The notes below the pieces were generated by a model, which worked only from the letters and a program-made list of their open reading frames with translations, was not told the DNA's origin and made no database searches. From Deltaproteobacteria bacterium (GTDB lineage: Bacteria; Myxococcota_A; Polyangia; Fen-1088): a stretch of DNA of 64,000 nucleotides. Location: NCBI GenBank assembly GCA_033763315.1, contig JANRKS010000034.1, forward strand, positions 340 through 64,339, given 5' to 3'. Of this stretch, positions 3,260 to 57,368 are shown piece after piece (position 1 is the first letter of the stretch; every line of letters starts with the position of its first letter). Position numbers and translations under genes: made by a program.

Positions 3260-3670
3260 TCACTCGCTACGTGATAGACGGACAAAGGCGTCAGCCGGCT
3301 CAAATGCGACCAATGAATCGTCCTCCGTAGACATAGATCCCTGAACCATCTTGTGTTCGATGCCTTTCAAGGCGCGAAAGATGGCTGACACTTGTTCCTC
3401 GAGATCTCGCAACCGGTTTTCCACTGCCACCATCGACTGCGGCATTGGCTTAGGTTCATCTGTGGCCGCGGGCCGCACCAAGCCTAGGGCTTTCTGCCAA
3501 CGGAACAACAAACCAACTGCGATGTCGTGGCGTCTCGCTACGAGCGACAAGGTTTCATTCTCTGCAAAGGCCTTTAGGATCAAGCTTCGCTTCTCTGCGT
3601 CTGAAAACCTTCGCCGACGTCCATCACGAAATGGTGGAACAACAACTGGGGCACCTTCAAACTTGCTCAT
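3260..3670 (-). CDS. IS3/IS66-family transposase accessory protein OrfA (HTH_Tnp_1 / Transposase_8). Solo remnant with no OrfB.
   Basis: RRRFSDAEKRSLILKAFAENETLSLVARRHDIAVGLLFRWQKAL is a classic IS3/IS66 OrfA helix-turn-helix, followed by a leucine-zipper-like tail (LRDLEEQVSAIFRALKGI). No downstream transposase catalytic ORF is present; 2932..3303 and 3066..3263 are not protein-like. Confidence 0.7.
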   Translation of the reverse strand: MSKFEGAPVVVPPFRDGRRRRFSDAEKRSLILKAFAENETLSLVARRHDIAVGLLFRWQKALGLVRPAATDEPKPMPQSMVAVENRLRDLEEQVSAIFRALKGIEHKMVQGSMSTEDDSLVAFEPADAFVRLSRSE

Positions 3671-3792: not shown

Positions 3793-4938
3793 CTAGGGAT
3801 TCACGCCGGGACCGAATACCACTTTGTTAATCGATGGCTTGCCCTGTGCTGTGCCCGTGCCCCATGTGCCATCAACCGCACCGACGGGTGCCCACAAGGG
3901 CGACGGGCTCCGAAAGCCAGCGACGAGGTTCAAGCCAAAATCGATTGGACCCGCACAATTGCCTTCAGCTATTTTGCCCCATGATCGACCGAGATCTGTC
4001 GAAACCCAACAGTGGAAATTGGAGCCGAGCAGGATGCGACCACCTGGCAGCGCGGCAGCGCCTAGCACATAGGTGCCGCTCAGATTCATTGAAGCCGACC
4101 AGGTCTTGCCGTCGCTCGACGTTGTTACGGTGCCATCGCTGCGATAGACGACGAAGCGGCCCTGCACGAAATCGACACCGTCATAGCTGCCGACGTTAGC
4201 GGCGACGTTCCAGTTGCGAAGGTCGGTGCTCCAAAACGTTCCGTTATCACCAGTCGCTACGAAGACGTCGGACCCGAAAGCCATGCCTCGGATATTGCCC
4301 TGCGCGCGCGCCGCCTGTCGGGTCCAATCAAACCCGTTGGGGCTGGTGAAGACCTCACCAGCCGTTGCTCCAGCGACAAACATACCTTTGCCAAAGGCGA
4401 CGCCCCCCATCCAGCCGCCGTCCATGATGGTGTCGCGCCAATCTTTGCCATTTGCGCTGACACTGCTCCAGCGGCCTCCCGGTCCAGCCCCACCACCTCC
4501 TCCGACCGCAACGAACAAGCCGTTGCCAAATGCCAGGCCACGAAGATTGTTGGGGTCGTCGCCGCCGCCGCCGCGAATCTTCGCGTCGATCCACTGCCGC
4601 CCGTTCAGCGATCGAATGCGGATCCCCGAGTATCCTACGGCGACCCAGATGCCCTTCGAGCGATTGCCTGGTTCCACGCCCCCGTCTGGCGCCGTCCGCG
4701 CGTCGGCAGCCCCGCCCGCATCGGGCACCGCCGCGCCGCTGGCCCCGCCAACCTCTGGGTTTGCCCCATCGCCTCCGCTTCCGCCATTGGCCACAGCCCC
4801 TCCCATGTGACTGCTCGACGAATGGCCGCCTTCGGCGTCACTTTCGCCGACCGATTCAGTGTCTGGCGACGCGGCGCAAGCCGTAAGCCCGAAGAATAGA
4901 AAGAAGGTGGATCTCCAAATTACAGATCGTGAGAGCAT
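3793..4938 (-). CDS. Secreted lipoprotein with Gly-rich linker and BNR/Asp-box-like beta-propeller repeats.
   Basis: Signal peptide with lipobox (FFLFFGLTAC). Gly-rich low-complexity segment. Five repeats of the form G.AFG.G.FVA.G....S.DG..W, with TSSDGKTW matching the BNR consensus SxDxGxTW. Confidence 0.6.
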   Translation of the reverse strand: MLSRSVIWRSTFFLFFGLTACAASPDTESVGESDAEGGHSSSSHMGGAVANGGSGGDGANPEVGGASGAAVPDAGGAADARTAPDGGVEPGNRSKGIWVAVGYSGIRIRSLNGRQWIDAKIRGGGGDDPNNLRGLAFGNGLFVAVGGGGGAGPGGRWSSVSANGKDWRDTIMDGGWMGGVAFGKGMFVAGATAGEVFTSPNGFDWTRQAARAQGNIRGMAFGSDVFVATGDNGTFWSTDLRNWNVAANVGSYDGVDFVQGRFVVYRSDGTVTTSSDGKTWSASMNLSGTYVLGAAALPGGRILLGSNFHCWVSTDLGRSWGKIAEGNCAGPIDFGLNLVAGFRSPSPLWAPVGAVDGTWGTGTAQGKPSINKVVFGPGVNP

Positions 4939-5071: not shown

Positions 5072-6025
5072 TCACTTGGGCAACACCTTCACCAGCCCCA
5101 TGTACCATTTGGCCGCCATCTTCTCTTGTCCAGCGGGGTTTGGATGGATACCGTCGATGGTGTCAATGCCTGGGTGCCAATCGAAGCCTGTCGTTTGGTC
5201 AACGACGATGACCGGCGATGCCTCGCTTGTGATCCGCGCGGCTAGGCCAGGAAGCGAAGCATTGAAGGCGCGTCCAGAGGCGTTTGGCGCGATCAATTGC
5301 GCCACGAAGATCACTATGTTCGGGTTCTTCTTGCGAAGCTTGCCGATCAGCGTCTCGGTCATTGCCAAAATCTCGGCGCCACTGGCACCACTTTGGTCGT
5401 TGGTGCCAAGATGCACCAGCGATACGTCCGGCGCGTAGCTTGCCAACCATGCGTCTATTTGCGGGAGCACTTGGCTGAGCTTCCATCCGTAGTGGCCCTC
5501 ATGATCGGGGTCGTAGTCGTTGTAAAACGGTTTGGCATCCCCCAACTGCACGTTGCGGGTTCCGACGAAGTCCACGTTGTAGTTAGCCGCGATTAGCTTC
5601 TTCCACAGCGGGCGACGGTACGTGGCTTCCTGTGCGCTTGCCTTGCCCTCGGTGATCGAATCACCCAATGGCTGGATGCGTATGGCCCGGCCGGTGGGCA
5701 AATGGCCAAGCCAACTGATTTCCGTTGGCGATGCAGCGTCGGGTGGCAACATTGGCATCTTCCCTGGATCTGGGCTCGAAGCCCCTGCATCGGAATGGGA
5801 GCCGCCGCCCCCACCCGCGTCACTGATATTGGCCGGGTCAACAGTCGTGTCGGGGTCCTGGGCGGCGTGCTCTCCAGCTTCGTCTTCTTCCGCTGAGCCC
5901 GCTTCGCCTCCGACGCCTTCAAAGGGCCCGGTGTCTGCCGTACCGCAACCCCACGCACTCGAAGCGCATAACACCGCCGTCAACAAGAGTCGTGTCCAAA
6001 CTGCGGACCCGTAGCTATGGAGCAT
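5072..6025 (-). CDS. Secreted SGNH/GDSL-family hydrolase (esterase).
   Basis: Block I GDSITEG, block V DGIHPN with the catalytic His, and LVHLGTNDQ matching block III (GxND). The ORF is open to 6109, but the signal peptide MLHSYGSAVWTRLLLTAVLCASSAWG begins at the ATG at 6025. A Gly/Asp/Ser-rich linker precedes the catalytic domain. Confidence 0.8.
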   Translation of the reverse strand: MLHSYGSAVWTRLLLTAVLCASSAWGCGTADTGPFEGVGGEAGSAEEDEAGEHAAQDPDTTVDPANISDAGGGGGSHSDAGASSPDPGKMPMLPPDAASPTEISWLGHLPTGRAIRIQPLGDSITEGKASAQEATYRRPLWKKLIAANYNVDFVGTRNVQLGDAKPFYNDYDPDHEGHYGWKLSQVLPQIDAWLASYAPDVSLVHLGTNDQSGASGAEILAMTETLIGKLRKKNPNIVIFVAQLIAPNASGRAFNASLPGLAARITSEASPVIVVDQTTGFDWHPGIDTIDGIHPNPAGQEKMAAKWYMGLVKVLPK

Positions 6026-6221
6026 GAACAACAGCCTCCGATGGTCGAAAGAAAGCTCACATTGGATCTCCGCGAACCCGCCTGCAACGAAAGACGAATC
6101 ACGGGCCAAATTGACAAGTCATTATTGACTACACCAACACAGGGCGAGCGGACGCGCCGGTGGTGACTGTGAGCATCATCGCCCTTAGGCCGGCCGGCGC
6201 TCGCACGCGGCTTATGCGGTG

Positions 6222-9200
6222 CTACGGAACCTCGACCCAACCTGTTTGTTGAAAGCGAAGTCCGCCATTGCGAGTCACATCACTGATCGCACCACCCGCG
6301 AGAAACGTTTGGTTGAGCTGATCTGTGACATCGTGAACCTTGCCCTGCGAGTCTGTATACACGACCTTCTTATCAACGATGACGGCAGACGTCACAGCTT
6401 CGTTTACCAGTCCTAGGCCCGCTCGTTGTTTGAAACCAACGCCGCCCAGCTCCATCGTGTGCACCAAAAGATACGAACGCCCTTGGCCACAAACGTTGGT
6501 GGGCGGTGCAAACCACAACGACATGATCACAAAGCCCGTGCCGTCCGCCTTCAGGATCGCCAAAGGCGTACCTGTGGGTCGTGAGTTTGCTGGCAGCGAT
6601 TGCGTGCACGCCCCAGCGCCGCTGTTTCCTGACGGATCCCATATCCCGCAGAGCGATGAGGATCCTACGTCGTATTCAAGCCGCCCACCGGAAGCCCAAG
6701 TGAGGTCCGGCGTCACCCCACCAGAACTTGCAGCACGCACCTCCTTGCGAATGATCATCTTTGACGACGCAAAAGCGTCGGTTTGCGGATCAAGCGCGCT
6801 GTTCGTCACTTGAACCAGATAGATCTCCCCCGGGTGATTCAAGGGGTCGTCACGATCAAGCTGAACGACGGTCGGTGCGAAGTGCAACGGGTGCTGACAC
6901 CCAACGGCCTGTACGAGGCTTAGGTTGCCCGTGGTTCCTGTGTTGTTGTTGGCCCCCACCTGCGCAGGCACATAACGCCACAGGTTGCCCCACGTATCAC
7001 CGAAGTATGAAGCCAGCATCTGCTGTTGTTCACGGAAATCGAAATTGCGCGCCGCTGCCACGTCGGTGATGGTGGTCAGTTCAGTGGTGGAACACGCGGT
7101 GCCCGTAACCGTGTCGGCGTCAAGCAAGGTGCCCATCTTGGCGGACACATTCACAAGGGTGATGCCTTGGCTTGCGTCCGTAGGCGTCTCAGACTTGTAC
7201 CCAGAAGCCATCACAACGCGGTAGTCATCCTTGGTGGTGTTCTTTCCGTAGTAAAACGCAGGCACCGAAACCGTGTTGCCTAAAGCGCGATCGTAGGCGG
7301 CCTTGTCGGCCGGCATGACGGTGTCTGTGTGCCACACCAGGTTCACGGGCGGGTTTGCAAAGTTGTTGGACACAAAAGGCGTCGTCACATCCAACATGAA
7401 AGCCTCTGTGCCGCCCCACCCATCGGTCATAACCATTATGGATTTCCACACCGCGGTGGCATCATCGTCGCAGTTTTGCCAGCACACGTTCTTGACCTTG
7501 GGAGAGCTGGTCAGGCCAAAGATGTGCTTGCGGGGGTCAGGCTTTTGGCCCCCCTGTGCGTAAACGGAAGTGAGCGTGGCCAACATCTCTGGCGGAACAT
7601 AAGCAAACGCTTCTTCGCCGCCTTTGTAGGTTTGCCCCCCCACCGTGGTATCTCGCGTGAAAAACGCATGCAACATACCGTCGTCACCGGCCGCATACAC
7701 CAAGCTCACGCGCGTCTTATTGTCATCGAAGAACCGGCGCCCCCCCGGCAGCGACGTGAGCCCAGGCGGCCCCACCTCAATGGGTGTTGAGTTCACAAAC
7801 GCGCCCAACACAGCTTTGTTGCGTTGCCGTGGATCGCCCAACATCCACTGGGCAATGCGTTCAGCTTCGTCGTTGGTGCTGCCCAGACCGAGAGCCAACA
7901 GGACGTCTCGATTGAGTATGGCGCCTGAATTCTGTTCAACGTCAAAGCGAACCATCGTGCCCCCCGCAGAGGTATACACGCGTCGCTTTTTCCATGCCGT
8001 CCAGCTGGAGTAGGTGGCGCTATCGTCAATGTCCGCAAAGTTGGTGGGGCTGCCTGCGTCCCACATAAGTTTTGGTTGCAGCGTCACGGGATCGATATTG
8101 TTGGTGTCGTAAGCCATCAAGTGCCCTCGCCAACTTGGGAAGTCGACACGGGCGTCAAACAAGATCCCACCGGGAGTCAGCTTCTTATCGTCAACTTGGG
8201 TGCCAGATGTCGCCGATGCCGGTGTCGTTGAATAGGAGCCTTTGATGGCGTCAAAGATCACCGCTTGAATTGCATCCTGCAGCTCGGTTTCGTTGTTCGC
8301 CAGGAACGCGCAGTGATCCTTGGCGCCGGTTGGGTCCACGGTGTTGTCGAACGGAGAACGACACGTGCCTCCAGCACGCGCGATGTTTTCGTTTACGTCA
8401 AAGGAGGTTCCCAACGTGGCGTCTGGCGAGAACCCGATGACGTAGGTCTTCACGTTCAAGCCGCCTTGAGCCACGCTCTTGCGCAACTGCAATGCGTTCT
8501 GGATGGACTTACAGGGGCAGCCCGCCGCCGTTGCGTTGGGATCATCCCACTGCACGCGGCACGCAGGATGGTTGGCCACATCGCAGCTTGTACGCATCTT
8601 TCCCGGATTGTTGGGATCGGGCTCAATGTCTCCCGGACCGTTCGTTTCACCGTCGGTGATCAGCAGGATGAAGTTGTCGCGGCAAGGCAGATAATCCGTT
8701 GATTTCACATCGTCGAGGTAGTTCCATGCGGAATACCGCTTTTTATCGAGTGGCGCTGGCACGGCACCGTCAGCGAAATCGTTGATCAGAGCGCAGCCAA
8801 GCGGGCTTCGCTCCCAGTGCATAAAGCCGCCGTCGCGCGCCTTTTCCAGCATCGGCAGCATCTTGGCCATGTTGGCCTGGGCGGCCGCGGGCACATCGGT
8901 TGTATCCATGAAAGGCACAAGGTTTGGATCCCAATTGCCACCGCATTGAATCGAACATTTATCAGAACATTGTGCGCCTTTGATCGCGGGCCGGTTCGCG
9001 CCTGCCTGAGGATCCCAGTAATAGTCGTTGCGCGGCTTGAAATATGTGTAATTGACGCCAGAGATTGTGGTGTTGTTACCCTGGTACGTCTTGAGGAACA
9101 CTGGCTTATCGCTATCGGTATAGTCACCGCTTGGAACGGTGTATTGATAGATTGCGCCCGCAAACTTGGACGTGCCGCGTGCATCGGTGTTATTGGTGCC

Positions 9201-12200
9201 GTTTAGAACTTTGTTCGGATCGGTATAAGCCAAGTAGCCCTGGCTGACGGAGCTGACCACACAAGTGTCTCCACAAAAAGGTTGGTCGACCTGAACGAAA
9301 GAGCCACCACGGAAAACTGTGTAACGCGTGTTGACCCCGGGTCGAAGGGTGTAAGTGGTTGGACCCACAACACAGGTGGCCGCAAGTCCATTGCTCACCT
9401 TTGGGTTGTAACAGTTATTCCGCCTCAGCTCATCACGCGTGAAATAGCGATCAAGATAAATTGTGCTTCCCGTGTTTTTGGTGACCGGGTAGTAGGGAAA
9501 GTAGTAGTCGTCCGGCCAATTGTCTTTGTCGTTGGCGTCAACAACCCCGTTGTTGTCGCGATCATAAGTGCTGCCGTCGGCACTGCCTTGGCTTAAGCCC
9601 ATCATGCCAAAGTTCATGATGTCTTCGTTGTTCAGAAATACGTTCTTCAACACTCGTTTTGCCACGACGGAGCGGCTGGTTGCCGGCACGCATTCATCGC
9701 CCGCGAACGTCGTGCCGTAGCCGGCATAGGTGCAATCGGAGTCCACCGCACAAAAGGTCTGCCGTAAGCGGCACATCTTTGCAGGGCCCCTGTTGGTCTG
9801 GTTGATCACGCACGTGTCGGTGGTGTTGACGCCCTGGCACTCATTGACGCTGCCGCCTTGGCAAACGTTCGGCGTTACGCCTTGGCACGAGTTGTCTTGA
9901 GCGTTGCAAGGGTTGGGCTTACAGAACGAGCTTGAGCCCGTGGGCAGAGAGCCCGTGTTAAGCGCCGTGACTTCAGCAGGTGTGAGGGCTTTGTTCCACA
10001 TCGCCACCTCGGAGATTATGCCGTCAGAGTACTCCTCTGGCCGGTCGTTGTTGAGGCCGGCGCCGAAGAGTATCGGCTGGCTGTTCGCCCTACAGTTGCC
10101 CGACTTGGGTGTGCTGGCCACCAAGGTGCCGTCACGGTAGAGCTTGAGGTTGGCGCCGTCGTACGTGCCCACGAGGTGGTACCATTGGTTTAGCGTCGGC
10201 CCGATGGTGTCTGCAACCGAGGTGTTGTCCAAAACGAATTCCATCTTTCCAGCGCCGTTGACCCACAAACCCATGAAGTCACCTGCGCTGTTTGGCCCGT
10301 CTTGTTGATGAACCCACCAACGGGTGCTGCTTGCGAGTTTCTTTTGCACCCAGGCACTCACCGTGAACTGATCGGCCACCTTGCCGTCAAGCACCGTGCT
10401 CGGAACTTCGCTGTACTGCCAATAAGAGTAAGAGAGCGCCTTATCGGTAGGAGACCCGGTGTGCCCCGCCACCCACCCGGGCATGCCGTTGCCACAGCCT
10501 GCGCCCGTCTGGTTGCGAGTTAAGGCGACGCTGTTCCAACAGTAAACGGACGCGGGATGATTGTAAGATGATTGATCGGCAAGAGTCACCCCTGTGCCTT
10601 CATCCCATTTCCAATGGCCGAGCAGGTTTGCACCGCCAGCGCTAGCGCTTGAGGCCTTGTTTCCCGCGGCCACGGCCTCAAGCTCGCTCTGCGTAAGCAC
10701 ACGGTTGTAGATGCGTACGTCATCAATGAGGCCTTGAAAGTGATTGGTGCCATCGGTCCCAGCGGATCCGTCGCGCTCGGCACCAATGAACACATCCGCA
10801 CCGGCGGGCGTGCTGCCGGGCGTGAAGGTGGTGGAGGCCACGTTCGTGACGGCGCCCGCGCCCACCTTCTTCCACAGGATGGCAGACCCAGGCGAAACGG
10901 TGGCCGCGCCGAACACCCATGTGCCGTTGGTGACACGAACTGAGTCTCTCGTATTTCCTGCCCCGCCCCCCCAAGTAAGCGATTGCGGAACGAAGTCACC
11001 GGGACCCTTTATCCCCAAACCATAGTGGTCCGCCCAAGATACGTTCTCTTGCCGATTGACGATCCAACTTGAATAGATGCCCGCGCCTACGTCCACGTTT
11101 TGTTGGAACCACGCCGTGATCGTGTAAGTGCCGAGGCCAACGTCCAGGTTACCACCCACAGCGGCGGGGACCTCGAAATGCGCGGTCCCTGAAAGAGACG
11201 CCGCCTGTCCATATTTGCCTGCCGTGTACGTTGCGCCGTTATAGCCAATGGCGTTGTTCGCCTTGCCGGAGCTATCATTGCCGTTGCCTTCAAAGTCGAG
11301 TCGCAGCACAAGACCAGGCTCCGCATTTGTGCCCACCAAAGCCCCTATCTCTGCGTCGGACAGCACGGTGTTGTAGAGGCGAAAATCATCAATTAAGCCG
11401 TTGAACTTGTTGGCGGAGCCTCCGGCCCGCGAACCAACAAAGAGATTTCCTGAAGCGGACGCGAGCGCGCCCGGCGCGCCCGCGCTTTCATCAACCTTGA
11501 CGCCCTCAACGTAAGTCTTCAGCGTTCCCGTTGCGCCGTCCCAAGTGACTGCGACGTGGTGCCACGTGTTCAGCGACAACGGCGATGTGCCACCGCCAAC
11601 TGAACCACCTGACGATGCAACCGTAGGGTACATAGCTGCCGAGGGGCCCATCAACAGGCGATATTCAATTCCTCCATTTGGCTGTCTTTGGAGAATCCAT
11701 TCGTCGCCCGCGAGGGCGGGTGCGGATGGACGATAGATCCACGCCGCCATTGTAAGCTTGTCGGTCACCTTATCAAGGTTGCCACCCGCGTTCGCATTGA
11801 CGATCGTGTCTCCGTTCGCAGAATCTGCGGCCTGACCAAGAACGCCTGTGGCGTAGGCAGGGGTGCTAAACGATGCGTTTGCGCCGTTGCCCGAGGCGTC
11901 TGTGGTATCGCCGTCGAACTTATAGTGAACGAACAACCCAGCAGGGGTTGCATTGGAATCGGCCGTGTAAAGCGCTGTGATCTCGGCGTCGGAAAGCACC
12001 GAGTTGTAGACACGGGTATTGTCCAACTGGCCCCCCACGGGGTTGTAGTAATTAGGCCCCGGGCCAGCACAAACAGCAAGCTCCTTCGTTTGCGTCGAGA
12101 TGGTCTGGCTCACGCTCTGGGTGCTCACCAAAGCACCATTGATGTAAAGCTTCACCTGGCTGCCATTCCACGTTGCCGCCAAATGGTTCCAAGCATTCAA

Positions 12201-13253
12201 CTGAACGTTCGTGGCCGAAGTGCGAGGCCACGTGCCGAAGTTGCCCCCAAGGACCAAGCCGAAGGTGTTGTCGCCCCACAGGGTCATCTCGTATCCACCC
12301 GACCAACTCACAAGCTTCTGGTCGCCCGTGCCCTTACGATAAACCCAGGTGCTGATGGTGACCGTGTTGCCAAGTTGCAGATTGGCCGTGGTGCCCTGGG
12401 TCCACCCTTGATCTGAACAATCGATTGACGAGCCCGCGCCACCAAAGCCCGCAGCGCGTTTGGCGCCCGCCGTAAATGAACCTGTGTGGCCCGTTCCAGA
12501 ATGGTCGGTGATTGTGCCTGTGCCGGCCGCTTCATCGTACTTGAAGTGCACCTGCAAACCTGTTGTGGGTGCGCCGTTGGGAGGCGCGGCCACTTGGCAA
12601 TCGGCATCGGCGCTGCAAGTCTGCGTGGGCTTGTCAGAGCAATACCGAATGGGACAGCTGTTGCCCGGGCTGTTGCACACCGCGTTTCCATCTGCGCATC
12701 GCCCTGCCACGGCACAAGGTACAATCGAAGAGCAGAACGCCCCTGTGAGCTTGCACGTGCTTACTTGCGGCCCACAGTCTGCGTTGTACTGGCACGGCTT
12801 GCCTGTGCTTGAGCAAACACTGCCAACGGAGGGGCAATCAAAATCTTGTAAGCACGGGTCACCACCATACTTGCACGCGCCCACGCGGCACTGCGAATCG
12901 TTTGAGCACAAACGCGGAATGGTGCCCACACAGGTTGCGTAAGGGCAAGGGCGGGTGGCGTTCAGGCATTGTCCGGTTTGCGAGACTTCGCGGCAACCCT
13001 CACCAAGGTCACAGTCAACGCCCAGCTCCGTGGCGGCATCGAACTGCTCCCCGGGCACCCCGGTCATGGATCCCGAAGTGTCGAGCACCACCAGCATGTT
13101 CCCCTTCTTGAGCTGCCGGGTGATCATGTTGAGCGGACTGACCTTGGCTTGCGCCACAGGCACACCTCGTATGCCAGGCCAGGGAAACAAGCTCAAGTAC
13201 ACACTTAGCGCCACAATGTGGGCAATGATGTTGCGAAAGCGTGAAGACCGCAT
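6222..13253 (-). CDS. Giant (2343 aa) PilY1/PilC-like adhesin: signal peptide, N-terminal vWA MIDAS motif, Cys-rich modules, four LamG/ConA-like (LamG_3) domains, a vWA-like core, and a C-terminal PilY1 beta-propeller.
   Basis: N-terminal signal peptide, then MLVVLDTSGSMTG (vWA DxSxS MIDAS motif). Cys-rich stretches (CxxGxCxxxxDC...). Four ~180-aa LamG-type units, each ending in a signature such as IDDFRLYNTVLSDAEIGAL, IDDVRIYNRVLTQSELEAV, or ISEVAMWNKALTPAEVTAL. Later FILLITDGETNGPGD and KTYVIGFSPD (vWA beta4/TDG region). C-terminal LVYAAGDDGMLHAFF...AFAYVPPEMLATL resembles the Neisseria PilC / Pseudomonas PilY1 beta-propeller motif (VYVGANDGMLHAF). Confidence 0.85.
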   Translation of the reverse strand: MRSSRFRNIIAHIVALSVYLSLFPWPGIRGVPVAQAKVSPLNMITRQLKKGNMLVVLDTSGSMTGVPGEQFDAATELGVDCDLGEGCREVSQTGQCLNATRPCPYATCVGTIPRLCSNDSQCRVGACKYGGDPCLQDFDCPSVGSVCSSTGKPCQYNADCGPQVSTCKLTGAFCSSIVPCAVAGRCADGNAVCNSPGNSCPIRYCSDKPTQTCSADADCQVAAPPNGAPTTGLQVHFKYDEAAGTGTITDHSGTGHTGSFTAGAKRAAGFGGAGSSIDCSDQGWTQGTTANLQLGNTVTISTWVYRKGTGDQKLVSWSGGYEMTLWGDNTFGLVLGGNFGTWPRTSATNVQLNAWNHLAATWNGSQVKLYINGALVSTQSVSQTISTQTKELAVCAGPGPNYYNPVGGQLDNTRVYNSVLSDAEITALYTADSNATPAGLFVHYKFDGDTTDASGNGANASFSTPAYATGVLGQAADSANGDTIVNANAGGNLDKVTDKLTMAAWIYRPSAPALAGDEWILQRQPNGGIEYRLLMGPSAAMYPTVASSGGSVGGGTSPLSLNTWHHVAVTWDGATGTLKTYVEGVKVDESAGAPGALASASGNLFVGSRAGGSANKFNGLIDDFRLYNTVLSDAEIGALVGTNAEPGLVLRLDFEGNGNDSSGKANNAIGYNGATYTAGKYGQAASLSGTAHFEVPAAVGGNLDVGLGTYTITAWFQQNVDVGAGIYSSWIVNRQENVSWADHYGLGIKGPGDFVPQSLTWGGGAGNTRDSVRVTNGTWVFGAATVSPGSAILWKKVGAGAVTNVASTTFTPGSTPAGADVFIGAERDGSAGTDGTNHFQGLIDDVRIYNRVLTQSELEAVAAGNKASSASAGGANLLGHWKWDEGTGVTLADQSSYNHPASVYCWNSVALTRNQTGAGCGNGMPGWVAGHTGSPTDKALSYSYWQYSEVPSTVLDGKVADQFTVSAWVQKKLASSTRWWVHQQDGPNSAGDFMGLWVNGAGKMEFVLDNTSVADTIGPTLNQWYHLVGTYDGANLKLYRDGTLVASTPKSGNCRANSQPILFGAGLNNDRPEEYSDGIISEVAMWNKALTPAEVTALNTGSLPTGSSSFCKPNPCNAQDNSCQGVTPNVCQGGSVNECQGVNTTDTCVINQTNRGPAKMCRLRQTFCAVDSDCTYAGYGTTFAGDECVPATSRSVVAKRVLKNVFLNNEDIMNFGMMGLSQGSADGSTYDRDNNGVVDANDKDNWPDDYYFPYYPVTKNTGSTIYLDRYFTRDELRRNNCYNPKVSNGLAATCVVGPTTYTLRPGVNTRYTVFRGGSFVQVDQPFCGDTCVVSSVSQGYLAYTDPNKVLNGTNNTDARGTSKFAGAIYQYTVPSGDYTDSDKPVFLKTYQGNNTTISGVNYTYFKPRNDYYWDPQAGANRPAIKGAQCSDKCSIQCGGNWDPNLVPFMDTTDVPAAAQANMAKMLPMLEKARDGGFMHWERSPLGCALINDFADGAVPAPLDKKRYSAWNYLDDVKSTDYLPCRDNFILLITDGETNGPGDIEPDPNNPGKMRTSCDVANHPACRVQWDDPNATAAGCPCKSIQNALQLRKSVAQGGLNVKTYVIGFSPDATLGTSFDVNENIARAGGTCRSPFDNTVDPTGAKDHCAFLANNETELQDAIQAVIFDAIKGSYSTTPASATSGTQVDDKKLTPGGILFDARVDFPSWRGHLMAYDTNNIDPVTLQPKLMWDAGSPTNFADIDDSATYSSWTAWKKRRVYTSAGGTMVRFDVEQNSGAILNRDVLLALGLGSTNDEAERIAQWMLGDPRQRNKAVLGAFVNSTPIEVGPPGLTSLPGGRRFFDDNKTRVSLVYAAGDDGMLHAFFTRDTTVGGQTYKGGEEAFAYVPPEMLATLTSVYAQGGQKPDPRKHIFGLTSSPKVKNVCWQNCDDDATAVWKSIMVMTDGWGGTEAFMLDVTTPFVSNNFANPPVNLVWHTDTVMPADKAAYDRALGNTVSVPAFYYGKNTTKDDYRVVMASGYKSETPTDASQGITLVNVSAKMGTLLDADTVTGTACSTTELTTITDVAAARNFDFREQQQMLASYFGDTWGNLWRYVPAQVGANNNTGTTGNLSLVQAVGCQHPLHFAPTVVQLDRDDPLNHPGEIYLVQVTNSALDPQTDAFASSKMIIRKEVRAASSGGVTPDLTWASGGRLEYDVGSSSLCGIWDPSGNSGAGACTQSLPANSRPTGTPLAILKADGTGFVIMSLWFAPPTNVCGQGRSYLLVHTMELGGVGFKQRAGLGLVNEAVTSAVIVDKKVVYTDSQGKVHDVTDQLNQTFLAGGAISDVTRNGGLRFQQTGWVEVP

Positions 13254-13388
13254 TCAACAAACGTAGAGCAAACGCTGGGCCGTCTTCGTATCTCAGCATC
13301 TACGCGTGCTTCGCGATCGCGTTTCGGCCGCAGACTGACGATTTTCGTCACTTTGGGTTCGCGCAGCCGCAAGATCTTGCGTAGCTGA

Positions 13389-13402
13389 TGTCACTTGTGA
13401 CA
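13389..13402. promoter_or_regulatory. Perfect palindrome TGTCAC-tt-GTGACA in the divergent intergenic region between the PilY1-like gene and the second two-component operon.
   Basis: Read directly: ...gatgTCACttGTGAcaagc. It lies ~135 bp upstream of the ATG at 13253 (minus strand) and ~175 bp upstream of the regulator ORF at 13575. Candidate operator for a dimeric HTH regulator. Confidence 0.3.
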
Positions 13403-13574
13403 AGCCGCAGATCCGCACATCGTTCGATCCGCCGACCTAAACGGAGGAAGGTCCAACTGCGCTTGGAGGCTGAATGCGGCGCCGATCGCGCGCACAAATG
13501 ACGTCATTAATGACTAGGTCGGCGCCCCCGTCCCCTGCAGCGGGCTCTCCGCCGCGACAGAACAAAGGCATGTT

Positions 13575-14309
13575 GTGTACAAGCGCCCCTATTGTTGGCG
13601 CCCACGCCTGAGAAGGGTTCACTTGCAGTTCGCCGAGGTTCCAAAGCCCTACACTATTCTCATCGTGGACGATCACTTCGTTGCGCGATGCGGATTGCGC
13701 GGATTGTTTGAAACTCAGCCTGACCTTCACGTCGTGGCGGAATCGAACGACGGTGAGTCCGCTGTGCTCGCGTACCGCGAACATAAGCCTGATCTGGTGA
13801 CGATGGATGCCCGTATGCCTCGGCTCAATGGCTCCGCGGCAACACGTCAGATTCTGAAAGACGATCCCGACGCCCGGATCCTCTTTGTGTCGAGCTTTGA
13901 CTCCGAATCCGACGTTCGCGCTGCGCTCGCGGCAGGCGCCCGAGGTTACCTGACGAAGTCGGCCGAACCAACTGAACTGCTGACTGCCGTCCGAACGGTT
14001 GCGCGTGGTGAGCGCTACGTCCCACGGGGCCTTGCGGAGATGCTTGCGCGCGCCGAGGAGCCACACCTGAGCCAACGCGAGAGGAAGCTATTGACCTTGA
14101 TAGCCCGGGGGCTTTCCAACCGCTACGCAGCCCTGGAATTGGGCCTCAGCGCCGGCTCTGTGCGCATCTATGCGAGCCAATTGTTCGGCAAGCTCGGCGT
14201 GAAAAAACGCGGCGAGTTGGTGGCCATCGCTTTGCAACGGGGTTTGATTGAGGCCAACCGGGAGGACAATCTGGCTCCTCAAAATACCCTCGGACCGACA
14301 CGGTGTTGA
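13575..14309 (+). CDS. NarL/FixJ-family response regulator (REC + LuxR HTH), paralog of 1965..2597.
   Basis: ILIVDDHFVARCGLRGLF...PDLVTMDARMP...ILFVSS, then LSQRERKLLTLIARGLSNRYAALELGLSAGSVRIYASQLFGKLG. The track ORF gives a 26-aa N-terminal extension; the true start may be an internal alternative. The stop overlaps the kinase start by 7 nt. Confidence 0.85.
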   Translation: MYKRPYCWRPRLRRVHLQFAEVPKPYTILIVDDHFVARCGLRGLFETQPDLHVVAESNDGESAVLAYREHKPDLVTMDARMPRLNGSAATRQILKDDPDARILFVSSFDSESDVRAALAAGARGYLTKSAEPTELLTAVRTVARGERYVPRGLAEMLARAEEPHLSQRERKLLTLIARGLSNRYAALELGLSAGSVRIYASQLFGKLGVKKRGELVAIALQRGLIEANREDNLAPQNTLGPTRC

Positions 14310-17300
14310 ACGTGTCCAAGTGGGATTTGGCGCTTGGATTTCTTTTGGTTGTGGCTTGGCCGGCCACCGCCATGCCTGCGGGGGAGCAGCGAAGTGAACG
14401 TGGGCCTATAGCCCCTTTTGCGTTTCAGCAGGGCGAGGTTTGGCAGGCCTCGCAAAAGGTTTTCGCGCTTGCCCAAACCAGCGATGGTTTCTTGTGGGCC
14501 GGCACTGATAGCGGTTTGATCCGCTACGACGGACGCGACATCAAGAAATTCACCTCATCTGACACCTACGGACTACGTGAAAACATCGTGACTGCCCTGG
14601 CAACAGACAAAGGCAGGATGCTGTGGCTAGGACTCGAGGGAGGCAGAGGCTTGGCTGGAATGCGCAATGACCGAGTGGAATGGGTGGCGGAAGGACACGC
14701 GCTCCAGGGCCATTCGATCACGGCACTGGTCGTAGATGAACTAGGTGTCGCCTGGGCAGGCACAAAGGGCGGGTTGTTCCGTTATGACCATTCCACATCG
14801 GGTGGCTTAGAACGGTATGCCGCTTGGCCAGGTGGCGAGGTCTTCGTTCTGGCACCAGCTGCGGATGGGAACGGCATTTGGGTCGCTGGAAGCCAAGGGC
14901 TGTTTCGCGCAAGGAATAGCGGAATTGAGCGATACGCAGAGCTGTTCGCTGTCTCTGCGCTGGTTGACAAAGGTGGCGGCGAGCTTGTTGTGGCCGATGC
15001 GTCTGCGGGGTTGCTACGAGTGCAGGCGAACACCACTCCGTCGGTACTGGTTGCGGCGCCCCCGGGAAGCGATGGGACCAAGTTTTCCGCTTTGGCGATG
15101 GCCTCTGACGGACGTATCTGGGCCGGCTGGGGTACCGGCGCCGGCATTCTAACCGGCAACACCATTACACCGGTCCTCGAGACCAGGTCCGAAGTCGTGG
15201 ACCTGCTCTGCGATCAAGAAGGCAACACCTGGGCCGCCAGCTTCTGGGGATTGGTCTATAAGGCCATCGCTCCACGCGTTGCCTTCACCTCGCAACCGGA
15301 CAAACTGCCTGTCGTCTTTGGCGTGACCAGCGATGAAGACGGCGCGATCTGGGCCGCCCAGTTTATGTCTGTGACCCGCATCGATCCCACAACAGGCACG
15401 AACCAGCGATGGGACAGCGGTACCTCGTTTGGTGGTTGGTGTCCCCGGGGTGCCATGCGTGCTGCAGAAGGCGGCGTTTGGTTCCCAACCTGCGACAAGG
15501 GGCTATTCCGCTTCTCTGCTGGCAAGTGGCATCACCCGGGCGCGAAACACCCTGAGAGGGCACAGTTTATCCATTCCCTTTTCGAAAGCGGCGACGGCCA
15601 AGTCTGGATTGGCACAGGGCTTGGTGAGGTCTTTGCCATGGACAAAGGGGGCGCAACAACCCATCACACATTGACCACAGGAACCTGCCTCTCCAAAGAC
15701 CTGCAACGGCGGCCAGGCGTGCGTGAGGAGTGCGGCTTCGCTATCGTGGCCATTACCGAGGACAAAGAGGGTACGATATGGGCTGCGTCTCGCTCTGCCG
15801 GGCTGCATCGCATCCAAGGCAACTCCACCCGTACATTCACGGTTAACGACGGCCTTCCGACGAACAACCTTACGGCATTGCTTGCGGACGGGAACGACCT
15901 GTGGATCGGGACTCAAGGCAATGGTTTGGTTCGCTATCGCCAGGGTGCATTTGCCACCGCTCAAGCGTCAGCCGGTCTTCCGGGGAGCAGCGTGCACGGC
16001 ATACTACAAGACGCCGAAGGATGGCTTTGGCTGACCACAGAAGAGGGCGTCGTCCGCGCAAACAAGGCCGACGTCGAAGCGTATTTCGCCCACACTCGCC
16101 ATGATCTGGGCGCCAGTCTCCTTGTTGATGGCCATGGGTCCAATCCATTCATTCCACTACAGGGCTATCCTGGTGTCATTCATCGAACAGAGTCGGGGAC
16201 CTTGCTGGTGCCAACCGATCACGGCATTTTGTGGGTTGCAACTGAACGAATCTCGCAAACCAAGGGCTTTGCGTCACCGCACTTGGAGTTCGTGCGATTG
16301 CAAGGGGCCCCGCAAAACACAAATACCCCCCATCGTGTGGATTTGCCTGTGGGGGTCGAAGCCCTATCCTCGTTGTCCTACAAGATTGTCGTACCCAATT
16401 TCACTGCGAGTCATCGTATCGTCCTTCGGTACCGCTTACGAGGGCACGAGACGACGTGGCGACAGGCCAATTCAGAACAGCCAATTGAGTACTTGGCCGT
16501 GCCGGCGGGAGAGTACACTTTTGAGGCGTTGGCGGTCTTGGATGGCCAAGCCTGGGCGCCGCCTCTGTTGGCTCCTCAAGTCACCGTCACAAGTTTCCGG
16601 CAGCGCCCTGTTTTCTTCGTTCTTCTGGGGCTGCTGATCTTCCCGGTCTTGGGCGTTGTCTACGTGGTTCGTTTGCATGCAAAACAGCTAGCCAGCCGCC
16701 GAGTGGCTCATGAACGGAATCGCATCGCCCGCGAGTTGCATGACTCGCTGGCCCAGTACTTAAATGGGATCACAATGCAGCTAGAGCGGTCGCGCACAGT
16801 GGGCTGCAAGTCGCCTGGACTCCTGGACGAGATCATTGACTATACCCAGTCCCTTGTGGCGCGCTGCCTGCAAGAAGCCCGGCAATCGATCCAAAATTTG
16901 CGTCAGCATGAAGACCACAAGACAGATCTCCAGGCAGCGATCACCCTCTTGGCAGAGCAAGTCCTTACCATGACGGCTGCACAAAACGTTGAGGTGAAGG
17001 TCTCGATTCGAGGCACGCCCAAGCTCGTTGATTACGAAACTCACTGTCACATCTTGCGAATGGCGCAAGAGGCCACCATGAATGCCCTGTTGCACGCCAA
17101 GGCGTCGGTCATCGAAATCTCACTTCATCAGGACCGTCATCATCTGACGTTGTCGGTGGAAGACAACGGAAGGGGTATCGACCACAGCCAGAAAGAGCGC
17201 CCATTTCACTTCGGTCTACGCGGCATGCAGGAAAGAGCTGAATCGGTGGGCGGTGAACTCACGATTGGCGAGCGTCCCACAGGGGGAACGCTCGTCAAAC

Positions 17301-17311
17301 TGAGGGTCTAG
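14303..17311 (+). CDS. Sensor histidine kinase (1002 aa): signal peptide, two-component regulator beta-propeller repeats, Y_Y_Y domain, one TM segment, HisKA_3 dimerisation domain, HATPase_c.
   Basis: Repeated SDGFLWAGTDSGLIRYDG-type propeller motifs. A Y_Y_Y-like segment (YKIVVPNFTASHRIVLRYRLRGHETTWRQ). TM PVFFVLLGLLIFPVLGVVYVV. HisKA_3 H-box ERNRIARELHDSLAQYL. ATPase N/G boxes (LLHAKASVIEISL, LSVEDNGRGID, GGELTIGERPTGGTLV). Confidence 0.9.
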   Translation: MLNVSKWDLALGFLLVVAWPATAMPAGEQRSERGPIAPFAFQQGEVWQASQKVFALAQTSDGFLWAGTDSGLIRYDGRDIKKFTSSDTYGLRENIVTALATDKGRMLWLGLEGGRGLAGMRNDRVEWVAEGHALQGHSITALVVDELGVAWAGTKGGLFRYDHSTSGGLERYAAWPGGEVFVLAPAADGNGIWVAGSQGLFRARNSGIERYAELFAVSALVDKGGGELVVADASAGLLRVQANTTPSVLVAAPPGSDGTKFSALAMASDGRIWAGWGTGAGILTGNTITPVLETRSEVVDLLCDQEGNTWAASFWGLVYKAIAPRVAFTSQPDKLPVVFGVTSDEDGAIWAAQFMSVTRIDPTTGTNQRWDSGTSFGGWCPRGAMRAAEGGVWFPTCDKGLFRFSAGKWHHPGAKHPERAQFIHSLFESGDGQVWIGTGLGEVFAMDKGGATTHHTLTTGTCLSKDLQRRPGVREECGFAIVAITEDKEGTIWAASRSAGLHRIQGNSTRTFTVNDGLPTNNLTALLADGNDLWIGTQGNGLVRYRQGAFATAQASAGLPGSSVHGILQDAEGWLWLTTEEGVVRANKADVEAYFAHTRHDLGASLLVDGHGSNPFIPLQGYPGVIHRTESGTLLVPTDHGILWVATERISQTKGFASPHLEFVRLQGAPQNTNTPHRVDLPVGVEALSSLSYKIVVPNFTASHRIVLRYRLRGHETTWRQANSEQPIEYLAVPAGEYTFEALAVLDGQAWAPPLLAPQVTVTSFRQRPVFFVLLGLLIFPVLGVVYVVRLHAKQLASRRVAHERNRIARELHDSLAQYLNGITMQLERSRTVGCKSPGLLDEIIDYTQSLVARCLQEARQSIQNLRQHEDHKTDLQAAITLLAEQVLTMTAAQNVEVKVSIRGTPKLVDYETHCHILRMAQEATMNALLHAKASVIEISLHQDRHHLTLSVEDNGRGIDHSQKERPFHFGLRGMQERAESVGGELTIGERPTGGTLVKLRV

Positions 17312-17338
17312 AAGCGGCTTGTCAGCTCCCTACAAATA

Positions 17339-18262
17339 TCAAAGGCATTTTGAGAACGTCATGTTGGATCTAATCCGCAGCGTGGCACCGAAGAGCTTTC
17401 GGTCCGCGTAGAAGATGTCAATGGGATACACCTTTCCCGACTCAAGACCGAGGGTCACTGCAGCCTTATCAAGCTGCACCAACACCGGGGTTGCCGCGTG
17501 GACCCCGCCATTGTCTATCGCAAGCCGTCCGTTTATGAACACCCAGGCGTCATCATCAGCCTCCACGATCATGAGTTCGTTCGCTCCAGCGTGGTAGGTG
17601 ATTTCGGCGTGCGCTTCCAGGGTGAAAAGCTGATTGTGAGCCTCGTCCTTCAGCTTATCAGGCTCGTTGCTCGTGGCGGGATTGACCAGATCGACGTTCC
17701 CCAACAAAGCTCCATCGATCGGAAAAAACGGCCCACTGCCCAGGGTGTAAGTCTTTGCTGGACCTGAAGGCGCCAAACCTTCGAATGTGTATTTCTTCGA
17801 CATGTTGACCCCAGGGACGTCATTAAACCACTGAGCAAAGCTTGTCGGGCCCGCAACCTGCCGGAACCCCAACTTATCGACGAGGGGGCCACTGGCACTC
17901 AATTCCGGTTTCTTGTCGGCACCCAAGGTTGCCTTAACCACCCCCATGAGATCTACCTCCCAGCAGGGCATGTCGGGAACACAAGGCTTCTCCTGCACTG
18001 TCTCAAAGTCAGCATGTTTGTTGGTGAAGTCACGAATCGTAGCTTCGATAAGGGGTATGCACGCGGCAGTGCTTCCTGCCGAGCCAGCGCTTCCGCCTGC
18101 CGAGCCAGCGCGGCCGCCCGAGACAACGGCCGTTCCAGCGGAGCCTCCGTTTGCACCGCCACCACGGCCTCCGCTACTCTCGTCGGTCGACGAGCTGTCT
18201 GTACAAGCCCACAAGCTCAGGCTTACAAATAACACCAGGCTTACGTTGTTCGCTATCGGCAT
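17339..18262 (-). CDS. Fibro-slime domain lipoprotein (PA14-like; TIGR02148-type).
   Basis: Lipobox LSLWACTDSS, a Gly/Ser/Ala linker, then FTNKHADFE...FFPIDG...ITYHAGANELMIVEADDDAWVFINGRLAIDNGGVHA. This matches the fibro-slime signature (GDDDVWVFING-LA-DLGG-H). Confidence 0.6.
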   Translation of the reverse strand: MPIANNVSLVLFVSLSLWACTDSSSTDESSGGRGGGANGGSAGTAVVSGGRAGSAGGSAGSAGSTAACIPLIEATIRDFTNKHADFETVQEKPCVPDMPCWEVDLMGVVKATLGADKKPELSASGPLVDKLGFRQVAGPTSFAQWFNDVPGVNMSKKYTFEGLAPSGPAKTYTLGSGPFFPIDGALLGNVDLVNPATSNEPDKLKDEAHNQLFTLEAHAEITYHAGANELMIVEADDDAWVFINGRLAIDNGGVHAATPVLVQLDKAAVTLGLESGKVYPIDIFYADRKLFGATLRIRSNMTFSKCL

Positions 18263-18434
18263 CGACCATGCTCCTCATTGAGGTAAAGTTCTTCAGTACT
18301 AGAAGAGCTGTTACCGCCGAAACGCCACGGCTGGCTACAGGCGTGCGACGATCTTCATCTCGTGAGCGTCCATTCACCTACTTTCGTCAAAGACTGGCAG
18401 AGGTGTCGTGGGGACACTTGGTTTGGAAGTTAAG

Positions 18435-19085
18435 ATGACGAACGCCTCCTCCCCCATCCGTGTCTTGCTCGTTGACGACCACTTTGTCGCCGTGATGGGG
18501 ATCCGTATGCTCCTGGCAGAGCAGGGGGGCTTCGAGGTGGTGGGGGATGCGGCCAGTGGCTTGGCGGGAGTAAAGCTGTACGCGGAACTCAGACCCGATC
18601 TTGTCCTTGTCGACATGAAGATGGACAACTTCGATGGCGCCAGCACGGCGTCCGCAATTCGGCGAACTGATCCCAACGCGCGGATTCTAATGTTCTCGAG
18701 CTACGACGCGGAAATGGACGTGGCCCGCGCACGAGCCGCCGGGGTCTTGGGCTACGTGTTTAAGGAAGCCGGACCCGTTGCGCTGCTCAAGGCAATGGAA
18801 GCCGTTGCTCGAGGTGAGGAAAGTTTTCCTCATGGCAACGAGCTGGGTGCGCGCGCCACCGTAGAGGGTGCTGCTCCAATCAACGCGCGCGATCTCCAGC
18901 TGTTGCGGCTGTTGTGCCTCGGATGCAGCAACAAGGAGATCGCTGAGCACACTGGCCTGCAACTAACAACTATCAAGGACTACCTCAACGAGCTGATGAC
19001 AAAAATGGGCGTCAGCAACCGCAACGAAGCTTCTTTTGAGGCGGTTCGACGCGGCCTCGTTCGGTTGCCGCACAAGAAGCCCTGA
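18435..19085 (+). CDS. NarL/FixJ-family response regulator, third paralog, with no adjacent kinase.
   Basis: MTNASSPIRVLLVDDHFVAVMGIRMLL...PDLVLVDMKMD...ILMFSS, then LQLLRLLCLGCSNKEIAEHTGLQLTTIKDYLNELMTKMG. The ATG at 18435 has ggaag 6 nt upstream; the ORF is open from 18408. Confidence 0.85.
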   Translation: MTNASSPIRVLLVDDHFVAVMGIRMLLAEQGGFEVVGDAASGLAGVKLYAELRPDLVLVDMKMDNFDGASTASAIRRTDPNARILMFSSYDAEMDVARARAAGVLGYVFKEAGPVALLKAMEAVARGEESFPHGNELGARATVEGAAPINARDLQLLRLLCLGCSNKEIAEHTGLQLTTIKDYLNELMTKMGVSNRNEASFEAVRRGLVRLPHKKP

Positions 19086-19105
19086 CAAGCGAGCAGCCCC
19101 GGCTA

Positions 19106-20092: not shown

Positions 20093-20340
20093 GCATGAAG
20101 ACTACCTGCAAGAGTCGGCATCCGCGGCATGGCGATACTGCCTGGCAAACGGAAGACCTCCTTTTGGCAATACCACTCGTCAATGAGCAGCTTTAGCTTT
20201 CAAACAAGTTGATAGGCGGCCCCAGTTTGGCGGCCAAGCTGTCCGCGAGTGGACCGCGGCTCACGCGTAACAAGTCTGTTCGTCGAGTCGGTCAATTAGC
20301 TAGAGCAGGGAGTGCCGGGCCAGTTCCCGGTAGAAACAGT

Positions 20341-24440: not shown

Positions 24441-24534
24441 GCGCCCCTCCGTTGATCGGTCTGGAACCAGCCGGCGCGATGAACTTCTAACGGAGGATCA
24501 TTTTTGTGGCCTCCGAGAATGGCTCGTTTTCTTC

Positions 24535-27500: not shown

Positions 27501-27720
27501 GGCGCTTGGTCGGGCGCCATCGGCGCTAGAGAGCCGTCAACTCTTGAAACTGCTTGACGAAGAACGAAGCCGATTCGGAGCGGCTCCGGAAGACGCCGAG
27601 GCATTGTTGGGAATTGGTCAACATCCTCGCGATCCGAAGCTTTCAGCATGTGAAGTAGCCGCTTGGACATCCGTGTCCCGCGTCATTCTCAATTTGTACG
27701 ACGCCATCACGAGAGTATGA
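24535..27720 (+). CDS. PSCyt1 (cytochrome c-like CxxCH) / DUF1549 (PSCyt2) / DUF1553 (PSD1) large secreted protein.
   Basis: Signal peptide [28 protein letters not shown] (the ORF is open from 24358). [27 protein letters not shown] (heme-binding-like CxxCH). [18 protein letters not shown]...[15 protein letters not shown] (DUF1549-like). A DUF1553-like C-terminal region. Confidence 0.85.
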   Translation: [1061 protein letters not shown]

Positions 27721-31045: not shown

Positions 31046-31173
31046 CCAGGATACCTTGGTGGTGCGCGAATGGGCGCGGGCAGCCTCGCAGGGTCGCGGC
31101 CGGCGCAGGCGTGTTCGACGTCACCGCTTCACACGTGTACGACAAACGCGTGTTCCGACGATATCTCCATCGC

Positions 31174-57349: not shown

Positions 57350-57368
57350 GCCGCGAAGGAGACCAATC

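Follow-up and report, generated by a model that had tools for sequence, protein, structure and literature searches.

A PilY1-family protein with four LamG domains nested in a cysteine-rich insert, a probable type IV pilus tip adhesin of an uncultured Polyangia-like myxobacterium

The window analyzed here is a stretch of 64,000 nucleotides from contig JANRKS010000034.1 of assembly GCA_033763315.1 (Deltaproteobacteria bacterium, Polyangia), and the subject of this work is a large PilY1-type gene that it contains. This gene is one intact open reading frame (ORF) on the minus strand, at window positions 6222..13253, with an ATG start and a product of 2343 amino acids (aa). The original prediction, made from the DNA letters alone, had described a PilY1 homolog of this length with DxSxS, TDG and DDGMLHAF motifs, and all the positions given were confirmed on the translated sequence: VVLDTSGSM, which carries D58, S60 and S62, FILLITDGETNG and DDGMLHAF start at aa 55, 1528 and 1857, respectively. 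The DxSxS and TDG motifs, claimed to stand more than a thousand residues apart, are separated by 1473 residues as measured from the start of VVLDTSGSM. Along the minus strand, the gene is organized as follows, where vWA (also written vWFA) stands for von Willebrand factor A and MIDAS for metal ion-dependent adhesion site, the metal-binding site of such domains:

13146..13253 (-), Sec signal peptide, aa 1-36, with a basic n-region, a hydrophobic core (IIAHIVALSVYLSLF) and AQA followed by K; the N-termini of orthologs align here, and cleavage after AQA is predicted by the -3/-1 rule.
13020..13106 (-), putative vWA strand beta1 with the MIDAS motif DxSxS (NMLVVLDTSGSMTGVPGE...), aa 50-78, from conservation, structural models and the alignment to LapA.
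12567..13019 (-), cysteine-rich arm A, aa 79-229, 22 Cys, the outgoing half of a disulfide-rich insert.
9948..12560 (-), four tandem LamG domains (Laminin_G_3, concanavalin A-like), aa 232-432, 439-643, 647-865 and 878-1102, from PF13385 and our own profile.
9690..9944 (-), cysteine-rich arm B, aa 1104-1188, 11 Cys, the returning half of the insert.
9594..9689 (-), putative vWA helix alpha1 and strand beta2 (PATSRSVVAKRVLKN...NFGMMGL), aa 1189-1220, from family-wide conservation, model 1 and the alignment to LapA.
8892..9593 (-), second, beta-rich insert within the vWA domain, about aa 1221-1454, from the strands of model 1; present in all relatives.
8229..8891 (-), rest of the putative vWA domain, aa 1455-1675, with alpha2/alpha3, the putative MIDAS Thr position S1483, beta4 LLITDG (D1534), beta5, beta6 and the last helix.
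6225..8228 (-), PilY1 C-terminal domain, with a linker, the beta-propeller (Pfam aa 1816-2095) and a C-terminal region ending in ...GLRFQQTGWVEVP, from PF05567 and 3HX6.

When the C-terminal piece comprising aa 1676-2343 (668 aa) was scanned alone, PF05567 (T4P_PilY1) matched aa 1816-2095 with 50.3 bits and E 2.2e-13, well over its curated cutoff of 28.1 bits. Moreover, a profile of 49 family members matched the C-terminal domain structure of Pseudomonas aeruginosa PilY1 (3HX6) with E 1.3e-15, and the ILGxxxNSxP, VYVGxxDGMLHxF and GNLWR segments were all aligned. These two matches establish, at the level of sequence, that the 2343-aa protein is a member of the PilC/PilY1 family with the C-terminal propeller that had been proposed for it. 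One of its relatives is already named [quoted passage not shown] at NCBI. In contrast, the protein identical to ours is held there as [quoted passage not shown], because PF05567 is absent from an hmmscan of the whole 2343-aa protein, even at E<=1, and the split vWA domain is missed as well.

The whole-protein scan did detect PF13385 (Laminin_G_3), which matched four stretches within aa 232-1102 with 280.5 bits and E 4.6e-84 (cutoff 27.6 bits), in agreement with the four LamG_3-type domains first read from the sequence; their boundaries were set with our own profile, built on the stretches found by Pfam. The conserved ending (I/L)DDxR(I/L)YNxVL(S/T)xxE(I/V) that had been ascribed to them is exact in LamG2 and near in LamG1 and LamG3, but LamG4 reads IISEVAMWNKALTPAEV, and we take this ending to be the usual C-terminal strand of PF13385 domains and not a feature specific to this protein. 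Whole-protein Pfam and NCBIfam scans returned these LamG-type matches and one sub-threshold match to TafC, a subunit of the archaeal Tat fimbria, and nothing else. Kinship with TafC was discarded, as the match reached 70 bits for a cutoff of 410 and only the LamG-like part is in common. A phmmer search of the single protein against Protein Data Bank (PDB) sequences gave LamG/pentraxin matches only. A 373-aa LamG protein encoded nearby (20209-21330) was also considered as donor of the array and rejected, its best match, to LamG2, covering 150 aa at 37% identity.

The LamG array is nested in a cysteine-rich insert, of which arm A (22 Cys) leads out and arm B (11 Cys) leads back. Within them a cysteine is found every 5-8 residues, in aa 81-219 (22 Cys) and aa 1111-1188 (11 Cys), and the insert cysteines are conserved family-wide. 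Arm A has a weak, compositionally biased similarity to the low-density lipoprotein receptor/epidermal growth factor-type repeats of LRP2, and in a structural model that keeps both arms (model 2, see below) it is formed by short beta-hairpins with predicted local distance difference test (pLDDT) values of 60-88. In the common ~1400-aa form of the family the insert between the DxSxS strand and helix alpha1 consists of ~320 aa with 42 Cys, and in the LamG forms its length ranges from 876 to 1378 aa. After the signal peptide, every member shows the N-terminal sequence A(R/K)VxPLxxIxRQIxKxNML(V/I)VLDTSGS(M/L)TGVPG, and after the insert the sequence resumes in every member with PATSRxVIAKRxL...NFG(L/M)MTF. 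The original prediction had presented the separation of the DxSxS strand from the rest of the vWA domain as a peculiarity of this protein; the split is supported, with the putative vWA domain resuming at aa 1189 (alpha1/beta2, and then TDG), but it is common to the whole family, ~1400-aa members included. Comparison of the family members thus indicates that only the LamG array, nested in an older insert, is new, the split itself being an inherited family feature.

That the pieces flanking the insert form one vWA domain is well supported though not proven, on the basis of a profile alignment, a paired control, residue conservation, structural models and structure searches. The profile of constructs from which the insert had been deleted spans the junction in an alignment to the LapA vWFA structure 9no5 (E 0.039), in which NILIVLDISGSMADAS-GVPGLSRLELAKQAI...VQLVTF corresponds to beta1/MIDAS, alpha1 and beta2. 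In the paired control, none of seven relatives in their natural form matched any Pfam vWA model at E<=10, whereas five of the same seven matched positions 1-46 of VWA_2 across the junction once the insert was removed. In two of these five, the TDG region also matched PF00092 in its C-terminal half; PF00092 positions 103-171 correspond in the relatives to the region of aa 1455-1675 of the window protein. In a larger set, VWA_2 was matched by 18 of the 23 insert-deleted constructs. The MIDAS residues follow each other in the order DxSxS...T...D as D58, S60, S62, S1483 (consensus T) and D1534, the position of the Thr being assigned by motif spacing. Among members with the N-terminal region, D58 is D in 48/50, S60 is S in 49/50 and S62 is S in 50/50; D1534 is invariant (58/58 family members) and the putative Thr position is T in 47/58, with Ser in the window protein.

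AlphaFold2 models were obtained, with alignments made of full-length homolog rows, for aa 36-78 joined to aa 1189-1685 (model 1) and for aa 36-229 joined to aa 1104-1685 (model 2, with both Cys arms kept). Both models reached a mean pLDDT of 78 and a predicted template modelling score (pTM) of 0.76, and both exhibited the alternating order of strands and helices typical of vWA domains, with a confident N-terminal strand. The DxSxS strand was assigned 8 or 7 residues by DSSP in the two models, in a block with pLDDT of 81-89 in model 2. In model 1, helix alpha1 corresponds to residues 49-63 and strand beta2 to residues 68-75 of the model, and pLDDT was mostly 80-94 in the region of aa 1455-1675. 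The top PDB matches found with Foldseek were vWA adhesins, namely Streptococcus sanguinis PilB, SpaC, GBS104, integrin I domains, factor B and LapA, PilB being the top match of model 2, weakly.

Several observations weigh against the vWA assignment. Neither its intact nor its insert-deleted form had a Pfam vWA match at E<=10, and the insert-deleted relatives scored 14-19.5 bits for VWA_2 (cutoff 27) and 13-22 bits for VWA (cutoff 23.8), all below the curated thresholds; the evidence for the vWA assignment is at the level of the family. Foldseek searches of the PDB with both models gave nothing below E 0.04, and hhalign of the family core with integrin alphaM/alphaL I-domain sequences gave 1-17% probability, local only, and is unusable as evidence. 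That the N-terminal strand pairs within the vWA sheet is deduced from DSSP and pLDDT. Finally, the putative MIDAS Thr is replaced by Gly in four close relatives with 3-4 LamG domains. As the same position is Ser here, the metal site may be weakened or relaxing in the 4-LamG crown group; the Thr is kept in P0034 (1 LamG), P0010 (3 LamG) and the 5-LamG members, and it is Ser in P0033 (3 LamG).

A second insert, absent from the original prediction, was found between beta2 and alpha2. It is family-wide, beta-rich and ~230 aa long, and in model 1 it shows strands at residues 108-260 with pLDDT mostly of 70-90, except for residues 191-210 with only 44-48. Interruption of the vWA domain may also be older than this family. 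A family profile was collinear with a P. aeruginosa PilY1 sequence over PLMLIQ..NMLVTLDDSGSM, CRGSYHILMTDG and the propeller, an alignment that serves as a lead only. Together with the span of aa 48-368 described for the vWA domain of that protein (PMC8806160), it suggests, again as a lead only, that the vWA domain was already oversized and interrupted in the ancestor of vWA-type PilY1 proteins.

We also considered that DTSGSM could belong to a separate, complete N-terminal vWA domain, or that the gene could be an assembly chimera, both of which appear extremely improbable. Residues 63-230 are made of Cys-rich modules, with no alternation of helices and strands and no Pfam match. The same architecture is found at 35-67% identity in independent assemblies (P0002-P0010), one of these proteins (P0004) being carried on four contigs of the collection, which excludes a chimera; in all, it recurs in at least 10 independent proteins from different samples, and GC content is even throughout the gene and its flanks.

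An HMMER scan of 1.84 billion cluster representatives gave 354 matches at E<=0.001, 97 of them at E<=1e-30, so that the family is a small one. In a scan of one genome per species, the relatives turned up almost exclusively in bins of uncultured organisms assigned to Myxococcota, Polyangia and "Myxococcales", with fens, soils and permafrost as sources, and their commonest form has ~1400 aa. In a neighbour-joining tree of 1007 C-terminal columns, built without support values, the LamG-bearing proteins form a single clade, with one LamG copy in P0034, three in P0033 and P0010, five in P0008 and P0009, and three to four in the group of the window protein. This pattern fits one acquisition of LamG and later duplication. 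The clade is rare: it comprises four 50%-identity clusters of the 1.84-billion library (P0002, P0009, P0010 and P0033), to which P0080, with one LamG, adds a fifth LamG-bearing cluster in the family, and LamG is present in 2 of ~55 species-level loci.

Other long members and relatives were found along with these. At the same beta1/alpha1 site, P0085 (L071 6001-15066) has a Cys-rich stretch of ~1835 aa; with 3021 aa, of which 225 are Cys, this protein is possibly the largest PilY1 among those analyzed. P0158 (L070 480-4766) is a distant, Cys-poor PilY1 (16 Cys) in which DUF2341 and Laminin_G_3 separate DxSxS (aa 40) from the C-terminal vWA half (aa 736-816). Here LamG was nested independently in a PilY1 vWA domain, so that lectin-type modules between vWA halves are recurrent. 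At L047, tandem ORFs of ~2000-2250 aa (7511-13549 and 13586-20329), both kin to the PilY1 C-terminal region, occur in one bin. Further relatives of ~2000 aa (L044, L045, L048, L050 and L052) belong to a more distant long class, and P0117, a distant relative of ~2000 aa, had zero Pfam matches.

The common ~1400-aa forms of this family are pilus genes. ORFs with prepilin motifs flank ~20 related loci without LamG, P0049 lies downstream of a 130-aa gene, a PilW gene and a 239-aa gene, and P0085 is in an operon with the order N_methyl, N_methyl, PilW, PilX_N, PilY1. The operon linkage of the 3021-aa P0085 shows that size is no barrier to being a pilus gene. Linkage of pilY1 to minor pilin genes is common but not obligatory in Myxococcota (PMC13190605).

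For the LamG-bearing forms the gene context points the other way. No prepilin motif was found in any frame of the 64-kb window and no pilin Pfam family among the window neighbors, and there are no pilin genes beside seven other LamG-type loci with readable flanks (P0004, P0009, P0010, P0033, P0034, L007 and L008). The pilus association of the window gene is consequently indirect. Moreover, the neighboring genes differ among LamG-type orthologs, so that no conserved partner gene could be assigned, and the propeller lacks the EF-hand-like calcium site Dx(D/N)xDGxxD, with ARNFDFREQQQMLA aligned to DNNSDGVAD of P. aeruginosa. All this weighs against a place on the pilus, and the contrast with the ~20 LamG-less loci that do have pilin genes, together with the missing calcium switch motif, would favor a stand-alone secreted or surface adhesin located off the pilus, which retains the propeller as a mere scaffold and works without minor pilins. 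We hold this to be unlikely for the following reasons. The propeller is ~40% identical over its full length to those of operon-linked relatives. The C-terminus of the window protein, ...GLRFQQTGWVEVP, resembles ...PFKILGWTEL of these relatives, and ...GW.E(V/L)P is retained in the LamG forms, similar to the ...LGWTEL of the operon-linked ones. In PilY1 proteins the anchorage to PilX/PilK depends on the terminal strand: experiments showed that PilC/PilY1 needs its last ~10 residues to stay at the tip, from which it is lost when the strand is deleted (PMC12918778). The P. aeruginosa calcium loop DNNSDGVAD is without counterpart across the whole family profile, operon-linked relatives included, and several myxobacterial PilY1 classes also lack the calcium switch (PMC13190605). 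In Myxococcota, moreover, unlinked pilY1 genes are frequent and are nonetheless regarded as pilus genes (PMC13190605). The original prediction had left undecided whether this is a pilus tip or a stand-alone protein, and the answer reached here is a partial one: the conserved docking strand and propeller, and the role of that strand in retaining PilY1, make a tip location more likely on sequence evidence, although the LamG-type genes with readable flanks lie apart from pilin genes.

The protein is thus probably a secreted, accessory, glycan-binding tip adhesin of the PilY1 family, carried by the type IV pili of an uncultured Polyangia-like myxobacterium. Current models place the PilY1 propeller and last ~10 residues on PilX/PilK, with the N-terminal domain at the extreme tip (PMC12918778, PMC13190605). 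By analogy, the C-terminal beta-propeller and terminal beta-strand would attach the protein to a minor-pilin priming complex (PilX and partners), presumably encoded elsewhere, and docking through the C-terminus would leave the N-terminal part as the outermost piece of the pilus. This part would be a single vWA domain whose DxSxS-bearing beta1-alpha1 loop holds a disulfide-rich stalk, to the end of which four divergent LamG (concanavalin A-like) domains have been added in this clade. As the beta1-alpha1 loop lies on the MIDAS face, stalk and array would stand out from the vWA domain, at the very tip, on the side that binds the ligand. The array could act as a multivalent binding head, most probably for a polysaccharide such as matrix exopolysaccharide, plant or fungal glycans, or prey surfaces, and the pilus would so attach to a substrate other than that of the canonical ~1400-aa paralog and pull on it upon retraction. 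In one genome bin, a 5-LamG form (L008) occurs together with a fragment of the canonical type (L037), subject to the usual caveat on binning.

The likely polysaccharide ligand of the array is deduced by analogy, and folds of the LamG/concanavalin A type bind proteins as well as sugars. On these grounds the array might not be a lectin, being instead a protein-binding head for prey or kin recognition, or a spacer that extends the reach of the vWA domain. The pairwise identity of 24-33% among the four LamG domains would fit several different specificities, and no sugar-binding residues were identified in them. On the other hand, the window protein has fainter matches to sialidase and trans-sialidase lectin-like domains, and the characterized concanavalin A-like module borne on a pilus, that of S. 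sanguinis PilC, binds glycans (PMC9934059). With the DUF4114 domain of M. xanthus PilY1.1, for which exopolysaccharide binding has been proposed (PMC9109919), it sets a precedent for lectin-type modules at the tips of pili. We consider a non-lectin array rather unlikely, and glycan binding remains the preferred reading.

A more ambitious extension, quite improbable in our view, takes the beta1-alpha1 (MIDAS) loop of PilY1-type vWA domains as a general docking port for exchangeable binding heads and the LamG array, on its disulfide-locked stalk, as a mechanical lever as well, so that the protein would be a lectin-gated, integrin-like mechanosensor at the pilus tip. Pull on a LamG-bound glycan at retraction would then transmit force into the MIDAS loop and helix alpha1, with opening or closure of the metal site, or a signal of contact with a surface, as the result. 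The replacement of the MIDAS Thr by Ser or Gly in the 4-LamG crown group would, in such a scheme, reflect ligand binding handed from the metal site to the lectins.

Glycan-related genes are found around the PilY1 gene in the window (14303-21330, 31056-32684, 40780-42135 and 5072-6109), the set comprising a Reg_prop/Y_Y_Y histidine kinase, a PA14 protein, a Cip1-like protein, the 373-aa LamG_3 protein, a CE2/GDSL esterase, an alpha-L-fucosidase and a GDSL lipase, and a LuxR response regulator is encoded at 1965-2690. A functional link to these neighbors was rejected, since the neighborhood is not kept beside orthologs and their presence is therefore no evidence of one. A conserved downstream partner was also discarded, as the 450-aa ORFs that follow P0009 and P0010 are unrelated to each other. 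A scan for promoters and terminators around the gene gave sites no more numerous than in shuffled sequence. On the minus strand at 3260-3670, ~2.5 kb downstream of the PilY1 gene, a 136-aa ORF matches HTH_Tnp_1 and looks like an IS3-type OrfA-like fragment; no transposase catalytic ORF matching it was noted. On the plus strand, a 502-aa ORF at 44178-45686 matches T6SS_VipA (aa 58-136) and VipB (aa 211-488), with the appearance of a fused sheath-like protein, and is directly followed by a Ser/Thr protein kinase (45702-47723); no further type VI secretion genes were seen among the window ORFs scanned. Paralogous pairs of PSD/PSCyt3 (DUF1592/1588/1595) and HXXSHH (DUF1552) proteins are encoded at 21400-24440 and 55688-58724, and a PSCyt1/PSCyt2/PSD1 and DUF1501 pair at 24358-29162; such "planctomycete-type" pairs of secreted proteins also flank the LamG-PilY1 gene P0033 (L068). 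Two minus-strand ORFs, one of 994 aa (58793-61777) and one of 381 aa with an N-terminal hydrophobic stretch (3793-4938), have no Pfam match at the thresholds used.

We compared the window protein with known pilus tip proteins. Myxococcus xanthus PilY1.3 and the Cys-rich long classes 1.5-1.7 (PMC13190605) have in common with it a signal peptide, an N-terminal vWFA domain with MIDAS, many cysteines, a C-terminal PF05567 propeller, the tip role with PilX/W/V/FimU, probable in the window protein, and the occurrence of unlinked copies in Myxococcota. The myxobacterial PilY1 classes described carry N-terminal vWFA or DUF4114 only, whereas the window protein has 2343 aa with four LamG domains in the vWA beta1-alpha1 loop (PilY1.3 being compared by description), and it comes from uncultured lineages outside the sampling of that study. 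P. aeruginosa PilY1 (PA4554) shares the homologous propeller; its vWA domain follows directly after the signal peptide (aa 48-368) and is oversized for a vWA domain (PMC8806160). Unlike the window protein, it has ~260 residues between DxSxS and TDG instead of 1473, no LamG, 7 Cys in its vWA domain, and the Dx(D/N)xDGxxD calcium site. In S. sanguinis, PilB (vWA) and PilC (concanavalin A-like lectin) display the same two kinds of module at the type IV pilus tip, but on two separate pilins, whereas here both are in one PilY1 chain, with the lectins inside the vWA domain and no pilin moiety. MshQ of the Vibrio cholerae mannose-sensitive haemagglutinin (MSHA) pilus carries LamG-type domains. It is also, compared by description, a large tip-associated protein encoded after minor pilins, with predicted docking of its C-terminal strand (PMC12918778), and no PilY1 homolog is predicted in the MSHA locus (PMC12918778).

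The N-terminal domains of PilY1 proteins decide the adhesion target of the type IV pilus. The LamG lectin array is a third type of PilY1 N-terminal module, beside vWFA and DUF4114, and not a new system. A survey of myxobacterial PilY1 proteins of May 2026 identified no other conserved N-terminal domain than these two (PMC13190605), the DUF4114 domain of M. xanthus PilY1.1 having been proposed to bind exopolysaccharide (PMC9109919), and a full-text literature search for PilY1 together with LamG returned no papers. The comparison also shows the route of acquisition, by nesting at a pre-existing insertion site in the vWA MIDAS loop. This one site carries varied cargo, namely ~300-aa Cys-rich repeats in most relatives, ~1835 aa in P0085 and 1-5 LamG domains in this clade, and inserts of so different a size at the same place suggest a reusable insertion site for diversifying pilus tips; the unrelated, low-Cys P0158 repeats the theme, with DUF2341 plus LamG placed between DxSxS and the C-terminal half of its vWA domain. 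As standard annotation misses both the PilY1 and the vWA identity of such proteins, tip adhesins of this kind are under-counted. The family is confined to uncultured organisms and its function is inferred. If the LamG array does bind polysaccharide, it would offer a testable explanation of how uncultured myxobacteria of soils and fens fasten their pili to glycans of plants or of the matrix.

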